A stretch of 37,277 nt of DNA, taken from IMG/VR virus record IMGVR_UViG_2711768166_000003. One strand, 5' to 3'. Below the pieces are notes generated by a model, which was given only the letters and a program-made list of their open reading frames with translations, had not been told where the DNA came from and made no database searches. Source of the stretch: a virus. Taxonomy: Duplodnaviria > Heunggongvirae > Uroviricota > Caudoviricetes. Shown here piece after piece: positions 6,805-12,302 of this stretch (positions within the stretch are counted from its first letter, which is position 1; every line of letters starts with the position of its first letter). The translations under genes were made by a program, and so were the position numbers.

Positions 6805-7083
6805 TTTGCTGCTCCTCATCATATCGACCCTGCAAGGTCGGTTGGTTTCTCCACAAAACAGAGAAGAACACCTGCGGTGGCAGCCGCCCGGATGGATTGG
6901 GTTATGAGCCCGTCGTCCGGTGATGCTCTTCTCTGTTTTGTAAAAAGAGCGGTACCAGCCGGAAGCAAGGGTACAAACTGGTACCGCCAGGACTACACAC
7001 AGCAATGAAACTATTGCCTGTCTTTTCACCACTTCAGGCTCGGTGGTATGCTGGAGTTCTCACACAGCCAGCAAGGAAACCTA

Positions 7084-7425
7084 ATGAACCAGTTTTATGT
7101 TCACGTTCGTCTGTTTGAAGCAACAGCCGAACAGACCAAAAAATTTGAAGAATTAATGCTTAACTTTCTGTACCAGAAAACAATCAAAGAGTCTGACGAT
7201 AGCTGCTGCAGACTGATTCCAGAGGGATATATCCTCAAAAGCACAATGAACTGCCAACAAATCCTTGATCAAACTTTTTCCATTGCTAACAGTGCTGGTG
7301 TTGACGCAAATATATTTGTCTGCAAATTTGAACAAAGCGCATGCTTACTTCCGTCTGCTTCCTTAGTTGGCAACGATTTTGTTCATCACGATCTTACGCC
7401 TAAGCCCATCAAGCTCGATTCTTAA
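7084..7425 (+). CDS. Hypothetical prophage protein (e14 YmfI-like by size and position)
   Basis: Start at the Met preceded by AAGGAA RBS (MNQFYVHVRLFEA...), 113 aa; its 3' end overlaps the convergent ORF 7363..7671. Confidence 0.5.
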   Translation: MNQFYVHVRLFEATAEQTKKFEELMLNFLYQKTIKESDDSCCRLIPEGYILKSTMNCQQILDQTFSIANSAGVDANIFVCKFEQSACLLPSASLVGNDFVHHDLTPKPIKLDS

Positions 7426-7671
7426 TGCCTTAACCATTGTGTCGTGATAAACACGGCTCACCCTCTCTCCATTGCATGGCAGTGGGGTGATCGTGTTAGC
7501 CATGAAATTCATGAACTTGGTTCGATCAGGGTCTTGCGCCTCGCAAGTCTTTAATGCCTGTTTTGCTAACAAAATACGGGCCTCAGTGCCTGCATTTGGC
7601 TCTATCTGCTGCAAACGTTTAGCGTCTTCCAGCAACAATGCGATCACATGCTTCAAATCCTGCTCATTCAT
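7363..7671 (-). CDS. Hypothetical prophage protein, first gene of the leftward early operon (e14 YmfJ-like by size and position)
   Basis: 102 aa; GGAGAG RBS 7 nt upstream of ATG; lies directly downstream of the OL/pL-like operator pair. Confidence 0.55.
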   Translation of the reverse strand: MNEQDLKHVIALLLEDAKRLQQIEPNAGTEARILLAKQALKTCEAQDPDRTKFMNFMANTITPLPCNGERVSRVYHDTMVKALRIELDGLRRKIVMNKIVAN

Positions 7672-7858
7672 CTATTCTCTCCACTGAAATCATCCGCTAA
7701 CGAATCATCCTGGACTTCATATGCCCCAGGCTGTTACTTCGTGGGCGTCCTGCCTGTTCGTTTTTGACATTTACTGACCGCTTACGACACATGCACCGTT
7801 TTGCAACCAGATTTTGTTGTAATCCTGTAGTTGGTCTGGAACAAAAGATAAAATTAAA

Positions 7859-7894
7859 TTGCGAGATATGCAAGTAATATTGCGATATATGCAA
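7859..7894. promoter_or_regulatory. OL-like operator pair (two 15-bp TTGCG-N5-TGCAA sites) with candidate leftward promoter
   Basis: TTGCGAGATATGCAA (7859-7873) and TTGCGATATATGCAA (7880-7894), centres 21 bp apart; on the minus strand TTGCAT and TATCTT hexamers with 17-bp spacing overlap the sites. Confidence 0.5.
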
Positions 7895-7905
7895 AATGAT
7901 GGGTA

Positions 7906-7928
7906 ATAAAAAGCCACCTTTCGGTGGC
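7906..7928 (-). terminator. Rho-independent terminator downstream of the repressor gene
   Basis: Minus strand GCCACC-GAAA-GGTGGC followed by TTTTT, between the CI stop (7949) and the OL sites. Confidence 0.6.
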
Positions 7929-7948
7929 CGATGGATGGGATATTGAGG

Positions 7949-8641
7949 TTAATTATGTCTCTTAAGGGTTTGCGACTGACTGATTAAGACCTTTCCAAAG
8001 ACCATGAATCGGTGTTCGTTTTCGCTAGTAATTCCCCATTCACGGTAAATCTGGTTATCAGAAATCACCAGCAGTTTGTCAGGAATCATTTGAAGTCTTT
8101 TAACGTATATTTTGTCATCAAAACCAAAGACATATATACCATCACCATCAAACTGATTGATGCTGACATCAACGAAGATGAGATCTCCTGGCTCAATGGT
8201 TGGACACATACTGTCCCCACGAACGTTGATAACTTTGATGTGATTGGCTGGTCGTCCGCCGAACATTGATACAGCATTATCAGTTCTGTATTCGATGGCA
8301 TGAATCACATCAATGACATCACCGCCCTGGATAAGGCCATTTCCCGCACTGGCACTGATATCCAGCATTTCAATACGGAACACATCCTTCACCTGCGCAA
8401 CATCCTCATTATTACTGTTTTTATATACAGTATTACTTTTGAGGGCAGAGGTAAAGAGATCAGCAATATCAACACCTAAGCTCTTGGCAATATTACTCAG
8501 TGTTTGTTCGGTAAATTGTTTTTGCTTACCCGTTTCTAAGCGCGAGATGTTCGCCGCATCTACTCCTATTGCTTCAGCGAGATCGGCGATTTTCATGTTC
8601 TTCGCTTGGCGAAGTTGTCTGACTCGGTTTCCTATGTTCAT
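7949..8641 (-). CDS. CI-type prophage repressor (N-terminal HTH, C-terminal S24 LexA-like peptidase domain)
   Basis: 230 aa; N-terminal XRE-type HTH (KIADLAEAIGVDAANISRLETGK), C-terminal S24 motifs (GDSMCPTI ... KRL); divergent from cro. Confidence 0.9.
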   Translation of the reverse strand: MNIGNRVRQLRQAKNMKIADLAEAIGVDAANISRLETGKQKQFTEQTLSNIAKSLGVDIADLFTSALKSNTVYKNSNNEDVAQVKDVFRIEMLDISASAGNGLIQGGDVIDVIHAIEYRTDNAVSMFGGRPANHIKVINVRGDSMCPTIEPGDLIFVDVSINQFDGDGIYVFGFDDKIYVKRLQMIPDKLLVISDNQIYREWGITSENEHRFMVFGKVLISQSQTLKRHN

Positions 8642-8654
8642 GCGTTTATTACAT

Positions 8655-8725
8655 TTCTTTATTGCGTGATAAGCAAATCAACTTGCGCAAAATAATTGCG
8701 TGAAATAACATGCATAACGCGCAAT
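8655..8725. promoter_or_regulatory. OR-like operator/promoter region between cI and cro
   Basis: TTGCGTGATAAGCAA (8662-8676), which fits the TTGCG-N5-(A/T)GCAA pattern of the OL sites, plus further TTGCG / CGCAA half-sites (TTGCGCAA 8683-8690, TTGCGTG 8696-8702, CGCGCAA 8717-8723). Confidence 0.5.
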
Positions 8726-8738
8726 ATTTGGAGGGTAT

Positions 8739-8999
8739 ATGCAATCACCATTACGAAATGTGCGTAAGGCGCATGGTTTCACTTTGCAGCATGTTGCTGC
8801 GGGTGTTCAAGTCAATCCAGCGACGTTGAGTCGTATTGAGAGGCTGGAGCAGATTCCATCTATCGAGCTTGCAGAACGTTTAGCCAATTTTTTTAAGGGT
8901 GAAGTCAGCGAAATGCAGATTCTTTATCCGGCACGTTTTCAATCTAGCCAAAATCAGAATGGGTTTAAACCACAGGAACAGGAGGTGAACCGTGGGTAA
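8739..8999 (+). CDS. Cro-like HTH transcriptional regulator
   Basis: 86 aa, XRE-type HTH (HGFTLQHVAAGVQVNPATLSRIERLEQ); GGAGGG RBS; divergent from the repressor. Confidence 0.8.
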   Translation: MQSPLRNVRKAHGFTLQHVAAGVQVNPATLSRIERLEQIPSIELAERLANFFKGEVSEMQILYPARFQSSQNQNGFKPQEQEVNRG

Positions 9000-9549
9000 G
9001 CATCACTGGAAAATAGAAAAACAGCCTGAGTGGTACGTGAAAGCTGTCAGAAAAACTATCGCGGCGTTGCCGGGTGGTTACGCTGAAGCGGCTGACTGGC
9101 TCGATGTAACAGAAAACGCTTTATTCAACCGCCTTCGTGCAGATGGCGATCAGATTTTCCCGCTGGGATGGGCAATGGTTTTACAGCGTGCTGGTGGCAC
9201 TCACTTCATTGCTGATGCTGTGGCGCAGTCTGCAAATGGCGTCTTTGTGTCTCTTCCTGACGTCGAGGATGTGGACAACGCCGATATTAACCAGCGTCTG
9301 CTGGAAGTCATTGAACAGATCGGCAGTTATTCAAAACAGATTCGTTCAGCAATCGAAGACGGTGTAGTGGAACCGCATGAGAAGACAGCAATTAACGACG
9401 AGCTGTATCTCTCAATTTCGAAGCTGCAGGAGCATGCAGCACTTGTCTACAAAATTTTTTGCATTTCAGAAAGTAATGACGCCCGCGAGTGTGCAGCTCC
9501 GGGCGTCGTGGCGTCGATTGCTTCTGGTTGTGGAGAAACTAACGCATGA
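8992..9549 (+). CDS. Phage regulatory protein (CII-like / e14 YmfL-like)
   Basis: 185 aa; GTG start preceded by AGGAGG; position right after cro. Confidence 0.65.
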
Positions 9550-9884
9550 ACAGTTTAACAACACACTACCGTCGCTCGCAACTGATTGCGCTTCCGGTAC
9601 CGGGTGGAAAAGCGAAGGTGGAATATTGCTATGCAGTGAATGTACCAGGTGACAGGGAAATTGTAACCCACAGCTTTGCAGAGTGGGCTGTGGGTGATTT
9701 CAACCGGCAGAAGGAGACAGTCCTTTGCGACAAGTTAACCGCTGGTTCAAAGATCACTACGGAGTGCCCGTCAGAGTCATTCGTTGGGAGCCGGAAACAC
9801 AACGGGTTATCTACCTCCGCGAAGGTTATGAGCATGAATGCTTCAGTCCGCTCGAACAGTTTCGTCGTAAATTCAGGGAAATAG
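9546..9884 (+). CDS. Hypothetical phage protein (e14 YmfM-like)
   Basis: 112 aa; ATGA start/stop overlap with the upstream gene. Confidence 0.6.
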
Positions 9885-11326: not shown

Positions 11327-11979
11327 TGAGTAATAAATATTGCCGGGCGCTGGTGGAACTGCGGAACAAACCAGCCCATGAACTGAAGGAAGTGGGCGAT
11401 CAGTGGCGCACGCCGGATAACATTTTCTGGGGAATTAACACCCTGTTTGGCCCGTTTGTCCTGGATCTGTTTACTGACGGTGATAACGCCAAATGTACCG
11501 CGTATTACACGGCGGAAGACAACGCGCTGGCGCATGACTGGTCAGAACGTCTTGCGGAGCTTAAAGGTGCTGCCTTTGGTAATCCCCCATACAGTCGCGC
11601 CAGTCAGCATGAGGGGCAATACATCACCGGCATGCGTTACATCATGAAACATGCCGGTGCCATGCGTGATAAAGGCGGGCGCTATGTTTTCCTGATCAAA
11701 GCTGCCACCAGCGAAGTGTGGTGGCCGGAAGATGCAGACCATATTGCTTTTATTCGCGGGCGTATTGGTTTTGAACTGCCTGCCTGGTTTATCCCGAAAG
11801 ATGAGAAGCAGGTGCCGACAGGCGCTTTCTTCGCTGGTGCTATTGCTGTTTTCGACAAGACCTGGAAGGGACCGGCAATCAGCTACATCGGGCGCGATGA
11901 ACTTGAGGCATGTGGTGAGGCCTTTCTGGCGCAGGTTCGCCAGCAGGCGGAAAAACTGGTCAGGGAGATGGCGGCATGA
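11326..11979 (+). CDS. Phage DNA N6-adenine methyltransferase (Dam-type orphan methylase)
   Basis: Catalytic motif IV FGNPPYS; upstream DQWRTPDNIF and LDLFTDG motifs typical of the phage Dam family; start at the MSNKY Met. Confidence 0.85.
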   Translation: MSNKYCRALVELRNKPAHELKEVGDQWRTPDNIFWGINTLFGPFVLDLFTDGDNAKCTAYYTAEDNALAHDWSERLAELKGAAFGNPPYSRASQHEGQYITGMRYIMKHAGAMRDKGGRYVFLIKAATSEVWWPEDADHIAFIRGRIGFELPAWFIPKDEKQVPTGAFFAGAIAVFDKTWKGPAISYIGRDELEACGEAFLAQVRQQAEKLVREMAA

Positions 11980-12302
11980 CGACGTTAACTCAATGCCAGC
12001 AGCAGGTGCTGGATATGCTGATTTCTTACCAGAAAGAACGTGGCTTCCCGCCAACCAATCAGGAGGTGGCAACCATGCTGGGATACCGTTCAGTGAATGC
12101 AGCGGTGGAGCATCTTCGCGCACTGGAGAAAAAAGGCGTCATCACGATAAAGCGTGGCGTGGCCCGGGGGATCACGCTTCATACCGCAGTGAAGGACGAC
12201 GACAGCGAAGCGGTCGGTATCATCCGCGCACTGCTTGCCGGTGAGGAGAACGCTAGGTTGCGTGCAGCCCACTGGTTACATGAGAGGGGCCTGAAAGTAT
12301 GA
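11976..12302 (+). CDS. LexA-type DNA-binding domain protein
   Basis: 108 aa; ERGFPPTNQEVATMLGYRSVNAAVEHLRALEKKGVITIKRGVARGI resembles the LexA N-terminal winged helix; no peptidase domain. Confidence 0.7.
   Translation: MTTLTQCQQQVLDMLISYQKERGFPPTNQEVATMLGYRSVNAAVEHLRALEKKGVITIKRGVARGITLHTAVKDDDSEAVGIIRALLAGEENARLRAAHWLHERGLKV

Follow-up and report, generated by a model that had tools for sequence, protein, structure and literature searches.

We analyzed a 37,277-bp stretch of Caudoviricetes DNA, the IMG/VR virus record IMGVR_UViG_2711768166_000003 (hereafter the window), which starts in the E. coli icd region and holds an apparently intact lambdoid prophage integrated there, at the same place as e14. 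Positions 7766–8963 are the immunity cassette of this SfII-type lambdoid prophage, composed of the leftward promoter and operator region (pL/OL), a terminator, the repressor gene cI, the right operator region (OR) and most of cro. Palindromic operator sites stand on both sides of cI and are conserved in relatives with the same repressor recognition helix, and a perfect SOS (LexA) box lies inside the cI coding sequence, its arms free of synonymous change across 129 distinct cI sequences. An earlier reading of this DNA (the original prediction) had proposed the operator family, a terminated cI divergent from cro and RecA-dependent SOS induction; it overlooked the box, which would give the SOS response a second, direct route into the region. 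As an overall explanation, a basic repressor switch with an added LexA layer is in our assessment likely.

Operators, promoters and repressor of the switch

Four strong operator sites lie in the immunity region. To the left of cI are OL-a (TTGCGAGATATGCAA, 7859–7873, 18.7 bits) and OL-b (TTGCGATATATGCAA, 7880–7894, 19.1 bits), both exact matches to TTGCG-N5-WGCAA whose positions are kept in relatives. Between cI and cro are an OR3-like site adjoining cI (TTGCGTGATAAGCAA, 8662–8676), a third exact match found at +28 in all relatives of this type, and an OR1-like site adjoining cro (ATGCATAACGCGCAA, 8710–8724, 17.4 bits), which reads TTGCGCGTTATGCAT on the minus strand with one mismatch to the pattern and has a counterpart, ATGC-N7-GCAA at +76, in every relative of this type. 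The 15-bp family of the original prediction thus has its three exact copies where they had been placed, all in the immunity region, and the 37,277 bp hold no further exact copy on either strand, compared with 0.42 copies expected in all; one of 100 shuffled windows reached three. Matches with one mismatch number 7, against 8.2 expected by chance. The loose pattern taken alone therefore does not make the case for operators, which rests on clustering and conservation. A 17-bp weight matrix trained on relatives only (window, SfII and L005 excluded) ranks the four sites first to fourth in the 37 kb, at 17.4–19.6 bits, while random Markov-1 sequences of the same length contain a mean of 0.1 matches of at least 17.4 bits. 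The fifth match of the matrix, 10.9 bits at 8759–8775, is also in the immunity region. The operator consensus is ATTGCG-(T/A-rich N5)-CGCAAT, with nearly invariant TTGC/GCAA arms and usually G at position 5; the arms first proposed are conserved, but WTGC(G)-N5-(N)GCAW describes the family more aptly. A literature search for the operator 15-mers returned nothing relevant.

The relatives used for comparison comprised SfII, mEp460, Salmonella phage F1055, further phages, IMG/VR contigs and eight bacterial genomes with repressors 66–100% identical to that of the window (from Shigella, Citrobacter, Pseudescherichia, Klebsiella, Trabulsiella and Buttiauxella). Scanning IMG/VR with the first query returned relatives 96–100% identical only, and the diversity came from queries with the repressors of Fels-1 and of the relative L010. 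At about 167 loci the repressors share the recognition helix D[AGS]AN[IV]SR[LVM]ETGKQK, and essentially every distinct sequence among them has WTGC-N7-GCAW at two offsets from the cI ATG (+28 and +76) and again about 62 and 85 nt past the cI stop codon. The compared sequences are related and these counts are not independent events, which lessens their force. The Fels-1 clade has another recognition helix (DVGNISRLERGMQG) and none of these operator sites, and the motif was not found in the e14/SfIV cassettes, which carry a different repressor between the same flanks. Because it is absent where helix or cassette differs, we read the motif as following the repressor and not the flanks or the host, which is how the operators of an exchangeable immunity module should behave. 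The two left sites are 21 bp apart from center to center; the two helical turns noted earlier hold for the window but are not a conserved property, since the spacing is 21–24 bp in relatives.

The cI/cro control region measures 97 bp, and 86 distinct OR sequences could be aligned to it without indels. At least 97% of these conserve ATTACA (8648–8653, which the cI strand shows as TGTAAT), the arms TTGCG and GCAA in each of the two sites, the element ACTTGCGCAA (8681–8690) and the T, A, A and T of TAAYAT (8706–8711). Three putative promoters, all with 17-bp spacers, can be read here and at OL. PRM (8648–8676, minus strand) would consist of -35 TTGCTT (8676–8671), which is the right arm of the 8662–8676 site, and the conserved -10 TGTAAT (8653–8648). 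For PR (plus strand) the -35 would be TTGCGC (8683–8688) within the invariant ACTTGCGCAA, 17 bp from the conserved -10 TAACAT (8706–8711). The leftward promoter pL (7845–7873, minus strand), with hexamers and spacing read from the sequence, would use TTGCAT (7873–7868), the right half of OL-a, as -35 and TATCTT (7850–7845) as -10; AAGATAAAAT in this region is conserved in relatives, and pL would drive ymfJ-yfdPQR-xis-int. Each of PRM, PR and pL would thus take an operator half-site as its -35. The TGTAAT hexamer stops 7 nt short of the cI ATG, a codon with no Shine–Dalgarno (SD) sequence in front of it, so the cI mRNA from PRM appears to be leaderless; the lambda PRM also makes a leaderless cI mRNA. 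In the public records of Stx2a_WGPS2, mEp460 and phiNP the repressor open reading frame (ORF) begins at the internal Met16 (648–651 versus 693 bp). The upstream ATG is the better candidate, given the conserved spacing TGTAAT-7 nt-ATG and a complete helix-turn-helix (HTH) domain.

The repressor, and probably Cro too, would recognize 15–17-bp palindromes of the form WTGC(G)-N5-(N)GCAW. Repressor bound at 8662–8676 would cover the -35 and spacer of PRM and shut it, the second strong site at 8710–8724 would place protein over the start site of PR and the last part of its -10, and the OL pair would cover or flank the -35 of the leftward promoter. Between the strong OR sites, the invariant TTGCGCAA would supply the PR -35 and half-sites. 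The half-sites and the third 15-mer had both been noted between cI and cro, and both are there, together with the one-mismatch copy at 8710–8724. No 15-mer between the two strong OR sites exceeds 8 bits in the window, which counts against a full lambda-like switch. A canonical central OR2 15-mer was thus not found there, the 15-mers flanking the invariant element being under 8 bits. The relative L008 has an 18-bit site at +42, between its strong OR sites. In the window, the half-sites TTGC and GCAA that abut at 8681–8690 may form a weak, cooperativity-dependent OR2-like site. The lambda-like OL/OR layout therefore stands in that operators lie to the left of a terminated cI and between cI and cro; it does not stand as a set of three sites in each of OR and OL, as OL has two sites and OR two full sites plus the half-site element.

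A degenerate operator-like site, GTGCGTAAGGCGCAT, lies inside cro codons 8–12 (8760–8774; 10.9 bits here, not significant alone), and its 17-bp form at 8759–8775 is the palindrome TGTGCGTAAGGCGCATG. At this position L009, L010, L012, F1055 and most diverged clades have a full TTGCG-N5-CGCAA site of 13–18 bits, and the relatives with the full site use TTG CGN for Leu-Arg. One possibility is an additional operator, placed 50 bp beyond the PR-proximal site in the downstream direction; another is a by-product of coding constraint.

The gene order supports the divergent arrangement of cI and cro, and both products have an HTH_3 domain (Pfam). The cI gene (7949–8641, minus strand) encodes a 230-residue repressor with an HTH_3 domain (residues 7–62, E = 1e-11), a variable linker (about 65–86) and a Peptidase_S24 domain (104–218, E = 6e-19). 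Its HTH weakly matches a 434-repressor derivative. The S24 domain, named in the original prediction, aligns with UmuD across GDSM, containing Ser144 (8212–8210), and VKRL, containing Lys181 (8101–8099), and UmuD is its best, though remote, solved-structure match (E = 2e-4). The cleavage dipeptide Ala99-Gly100 (8347–8342) is invariant in 129/129 cI sequences. Induction would be lambda-like, through RecA-stimulated self-cleavage at Ala99-Gly100 by Ser144/Lys181. The repressor FsoR of Fels-1, 51% identical to that of the window, yields cleavage products in vivo after mitomycin C (PMC3121763), and on these grounds RecA-dependent SOS induction of the prophage is a well-founded prediction. The Cro-like protein (8739–8999, plus strand) has 86 residues and an HTH_3 domain and is preceded by an SD sequence GGAGG at 8730–8734; BLASTP of the N-terminal domain of cI against Cro gave no alignment.

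Between the cI stop codon and the left operators, as had been reported, lies a rho-independent terminator of the cI transcript (7904–7929, minus strand). Its stem (7929–7912), followed by TTTTT, has 7 pairs, 5 of them G-C (-13.2 kcal/mol, z = -3.1), and cI transcripts would end there, before OL. A G+C-rich hairpin with a T-run directly 3' of the cI stop codon is present in every relative examined (10), with differing stems (GCCACC/GGTGGC, GACCAC/GTGGTC, GCCGCC/GGCGGC and ACCGCC/GGCGGT). These are single-sequence folds; RNAalifold gave no pairs because the MAFFT alignment mis-registered the stems.

An SOS box within the cI coding sequence

The box turned up while we were checking for LexA-controlled antirepressors. 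The sequence TACTGTATATAAAAACAGTA at 8413–8432, within cI codons 70–77, is the sole LexA-box match in the window, a perfect 20-mer with a CTGT-N8-ACAG palindrome that is identical to the E. coli umuDC box. The same 20-mer is given upstream of umuD and sbmC (PMC3009722). We compared 129 distinct cI coding sequences, which encode 88 distinct proteins 51–100% identical to that of the window and include the Fels-1 clade. CTG-N10-CAG is present at the box position in 129/129. Within the box, Thr71 is encoded by ACT and Ser76 by AGT in all 129 sequences, and Val72 by GTA in 127; at codons 70, 73, 74 and 75 the third base is kept in 95–100%, while the amino acid takes 6–8 values. At the protein level the linker is hypervariable: codons 77–87 specify 61 different peptides. 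Of the 90 codon columns that are both conserved and degenerate, only four have a codon entropy near zero, and the box arms account for three of these; the median is 1.0 bit. Variant boxes in relatives, for example with a CCAG arm, correspond to boxes known from recN and dinI (list in PMC3009722), and the Stx2a-converting phage Stx2a_WGPS2 has an identical box. Conserved arms around a variable A+T-rich center are the signature of a LexA operator, and since the arms show no synonymous change despite the hypervariable linker, these codons point to selection on DNA rather than on protein. With two operator specificities represented among the 129 sequences, the unchanged arms amount to a natural experiment for selection at the DNA level. 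In the searchable literature we found no mention of an intragenic LexA box, and no report of LexA binding or of a LexA-dependent, damage-inducible transcript at the cI box.

The box is missing from distant relatives, namely Yersinia phage vB_YenM_30.14 (49% identical repressor), BTP1 and HK022. The Yersinia phage has palindromes of the TGCG...CGCA type upstream of its box-less cI (AAATGCGCTATACGCATAT, TATGCGCAAGGCGC and TTTGCGGTTAACGCAAAA). From this it appears that the half-site specificity is older than the SOS box, or that the box was lost in this lineage.

Two further features of the window touch on LexA. A second CTGT-N8-ACAG match, CTGTTTGAAGCAACAG at 7111–7126 (plus strand) inside ymfI, departs from the 20-bp LexA consensus at 10 positions and is probably due to chance. 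A 108-residue protein encoded at 11976–12302 (plus strand) has a complete LexA DNA-binding domain (PF01726, 1–65 of 65, E = 3e-19) and a 40-residue tail, is without an S24 cleavage domain and carries the label 'LexA DNA binding domain protein' in SfII; it could be an uncleavable LexA mimic made from the early-right operon. Its gene, which SfV, SfIV, cdtI and Stx2c phages also carry, is missing from Fels-1, F1055, Kp4872-1 and phiNP. We rejected a coupling of this gene to the cI box, because SfV, SfIV and cdtI have the gene with a box-less cI and Fels-1, F1055, Kp4872-1 and phiNP are without the gene.

A candidate nested gene and its alternatives

The surroundings of the box resemble the umuDC promoter. 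By the same rule under which umuDC reads TTGATC-17-TACTGT, cI reads TTTACC-17-TACTGT, which gives a putative internal SOS promoter at 8427–8455 on the minus strand, with -35 TTTACC (8455–8450) and -10 TACTGT (8432–8427); the spacing is the same in all relatives. Downstream lies a putative ribosome-binding region (8381–8407, minus strand) with GAGGA (8407–8403), AGGTGA (8394–8389) and in-frame GTG codons at Val84 (8392–8390) and Val87 (8383–8381). Each of the 129 sequences has, between the box and Ala99-Gly100, an in-frame start codon (ATG, GTG or TTG) whose anti-SD pairing reaches -5 kcal/mol or better; only 17% of the other internal start codons do so. The SD-like element persists across the 61 linker peptides: it is GGAGAGGGTGA in the L012 group, AGGAGG in L149 and, in the Fels-1 clade, AGG AGA, a pair of rare arginine codons 6 nt before a GTG. 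Three relatives without the box are also without such a start, a weak indication with n = 3.

The reading that we prefer, tentatively and at somewhat less than an even chance, is that a LexA-repressed internal promoter yields a protein of about 144–147 residues consisting of the C-terminal domain only. Host LexA would bind the umuDC-identical box at 8413–8432 and would most likely repress the internal promoter TTTACC-17-TACTGT. Once released, the transcript would be translated from the SD element and the GTG of Val84 or Val87 into a UmuD-sized product, and because the terminator follows cI directly this transcript can encode only the C-terminal two-thirds of cI. Such an isoform would be made only during a strong SOS response. 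It might poison the repressor by forming mixed dimers with it, affect the repressor in trans, or draw activated RecA away by titration or competition. Over-produced C-terminal domain of the P22 c2 repressor induces prophage, which is a precedent and not a test. Put more generally, and with slightly more reserve, the cI gene of the SfII/mEp460/Stx2a_WGPS2/ST64B-like/Fels-1 family may be two nested genes, the full-length form being expressed from PRM and the C-terminal form from the LexA-repressed promoter.

Several observations weigh against the nested-gene reading. The internal -35 is weak and overlaps conserved Leu-Phe-Thr codons; TTTAC is kept in 106/129 sequences, but the other 23 have TTTTC or TTTAT. 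Codon 87 is a non-start GTA or GTT in 50/129, and about 8 sequences have a start only at Val95. None of the four putative promoters passes a simple consensus promoter scan of 7300–9100, in itself a weak objection, and one that carries no weight because the genuine umuDC promoter escapes the scan as well. The lethality of a lexA-null mutation in Salmonella LT2 is attributed to Fels-2 and not to Fels-1, and this speaks against the isoform being a strong anti-repressor. Finally, Fels-1 is still induced in a lexA3 host, in which LexA is uncleavable (PMC3121763), so that LexA release is not required for induction.

Other coding or promoter arrangements at the box were rejected. The candidate -35s of an antisense promoter (CACCTG and TCCTCA) lie in variable codons and are not -35-like. 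A 71-residue ORF in an alternative frame of cI (8086–8301) is open in 71/129 sequences, mostly close relatives. A partial match in Salmonella phage ST-29, considered because it might naturally encode the C-terminal domain by itself, is a BTP1-type repressor gene with a frameshift.

The main rival to the nested-gene reading, which we regard as unlikely, holds that LexA bound at the box acts as an intragenic roadblock or modulator of cI transcription initiated at PRM, with no internal promoter. LexA would then lower full-length cI in the lysogen, and its cleavage would raise cI and buffer the prophage against brief SOS pulses. The position of the box, 210–230 nt inside the transcription unit, suits this idea, as do the weak internal -35, which is confounded by coding constraint, and the induction of Fels-1 without a need for LexA cleavage (PMC3121763). 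A roadblock, however, needs neither the umuDC-like -35/-10 geometry nor a downstream SD element and in-frame start codon, yet the latter two are kept across hypervariable linkers. More repressor late in the SOS response also seems contrary to the interest of the phage, although this is an argument from reasoning only. It is highly improbable that the 20-mer is no working LexA site, being either a conserved junction that favors recombination between the N-terminal specificity module and the C-terminal one, or a relic left by an ancestor resembling umuD. The 20-mer does lie exactly at the domain boundary, the Fels-1 clade combines another N-terminal domain and other operators with the same box and a related C-terminal domain, and UmuD is the best solved-structure match of that domain. 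But the conserved pattern, with invariant CTGT/ACAG arms, TA flanks and a variable A+T-rich center, is that of a LexA operator and not one of uniform homology, and a relic would have gained synonymous changes like the other codons.

A further alternative concerns the operators and not the box: the TTGC-N7-GCAA sites might be recognized mainly by Cro or by a host factor instead of the S24 repressor. Cro is also an HTH_3 protein, with a recognition helix conserved across the clade. We nevertheless find this quite improbable, given that the motif tracks the cassette and the recognition helix of the repressor, that it stands on both sides of cI, including OL at 800 bp from cro, and that a host factor would not vanish when the cassette alone is swapped. 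In the characterized lambdoid switches, moreover, both proteins share their sites.

The exchangeable cassette and comparison with known systems

The cassette borders at 7766 and 8963 follow from comparison with e14 of MG1655 and with SfIV, which are 91–99% identical to the window at 7012–7765 and 8964–9700 and show no homology in between; the cassette is thus exchangeable as a block. The non-homologous e14/SfIV cassette has a similar layout, with two left sites, a terminator, a repressor and palindromes beside each start codon, but its palindromes are of a TGTACC/GGTACA type unlike those of the window. In the cassette shared by e14 (the K-12 ymfK/cohE-ymfT region), SfV and SfIV, TTGTACC-GTTAA-GGTACAA adjoins the repressor start and ATGTACA-CCGGA-GGTACAT adjoins cro; two GGGTACAT/GGTACAT copies lie left of the terminator, which is AAAAAAACCTGCCGAAGCAGGT. 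These palindromes are a candidate operator set for cohE. Immediately left of the breakpoint 7765/7766 is an element, ACTTCGTGGGCGTCCTGCCTGTTCG (7737–7762), that is kept beside OL in e14, SfIV, F1055, L012 and phiNP whatever the immunity type, at varying distance from OL. On the plus strand it resembles a weak terminator, followed by TCGTTTTT. The pL leader of 169 nt is no more structured than shuffled sequence (z = +1.1) and lends no support to a nut- or put-like RNA there, and Rfam gave no match anywhere in the window when gathering thresholds were applied, nor any in 7300–9100 with E values up to 1 admitted.

In the PGAP annotation of a 100%-identical chromosome, that of E. coli A42, the gene order reads icd, intE, xisE, yfdR, yfdQ, yfdP, ymfI, a ymfJ-like gene, cI (there 'XRE family regulator') and cro (an HTH protein), followed by ymfL (CII/CP76 family), replication genes, a Dam-like methylase, the LexA-family protein, RusA, a KilA-N protein, Q and lysis genes. 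The immunity region is present at a coverage of at least 80% in 388 of 5,426 complete E. coli genomes and is about 90% identical to that of mEp460 and of several Stx2a- and Stx2k-converting phages. The operator consensus offers a testable definition of one common immunity group, to which SfII, mEp460 and, in O157:H7, Stx2a-converting phages belong. Should the box control a promoter inside cI, the lambdoid switch would gain a second SOS input, LexA besides RecA. The isoform would then set the threshold of, or the commitment to, induction in many prophages of E. coli, Shigella, Salmonella, Klebsiella and Citrobacter, Stx2a-converting ones included, and since the release of Shiga toxin is tied to prophage induction, release thresholds might be affected.

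Among the closest described systems is SfII (KC736978), which is of the same immunity type, with 99.6% identity in CI and 97.9% in DNA and with sites identical apart from spacing; its record already annotates cI, cro, cII and the terminator. In Stx2a_WGPS2 the operators are the same and the SOS box is identical, and Stx2a_WGPS2/Stx2a_1447 and mEp460 share the immunity type. Neither an operator consensus nor an intragenic LexA box was found in the searchable literature for SfII, mEp460 or Stx2a_WGPS2/Stx2a_1447. The window resembles lambda in its divergent cI and cro, its palindromic operators overlapping the putative PR, PRM and pL, its putatively leaderless cI mRNA, the terminator between cI and OL, and an S24-domain repressor with Ala-Gly, Ser and Lys. 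It differs from lambda in having an HTH of the XRE/434 type, operators of 15–17 bp with TTGC arms, two OL sites, and an OR of two strong sites 48 bp apart plus the invariant TTGCGCAA, where lambda has three sites 23–24 bp apart; it is without rexAB and N, and it has the SOS box inside cI. Rotationally symmetric sites of 15 bp and the lack of an OL3 are known from phage 933W too (PMC3317979), which means that a three-site layout does not define lambdoid phages in general, but 933W differs in sequence specificity and has three OR sites.

For the box, the nearest parallels are Fels-1 and umuDC. FsoR of Fels-1 has the same length, an SOS box in the linker (TACTGTAAATAAATACAGTG) and an internal AGGAGA-N6-GTG, but a different recognition helix and different operators. 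With umuDC the window shares the identical 20-bp box, the TACTGT 17 bp from a -35-like hexamer and a predicted product like the S24 protein of about 140 residues with an N-terminal cleavage site; unlike umuDC, the unit in the window is nested in frame within a larger repressor gene. Host LexA is known to feed directly into prophage induction through the LexA-controlled antirepressors GfoA and GftA of the Gifsy phages and Tum of phage 186 (PMC3121763). These are separate genes that act against uncleavable repressors, whereas the candidate in the window is a shortened version of a repressor that is itself cleavable, and the relative Fels-1 can be induced without LexA cleavage. As an immunity region, the cassette is an uncharacterized member of a well-known kind, and it is the intragenic SOS box, with its promoter-like and ribosome-binding context, that makes it a variant of the lambda paradigm.

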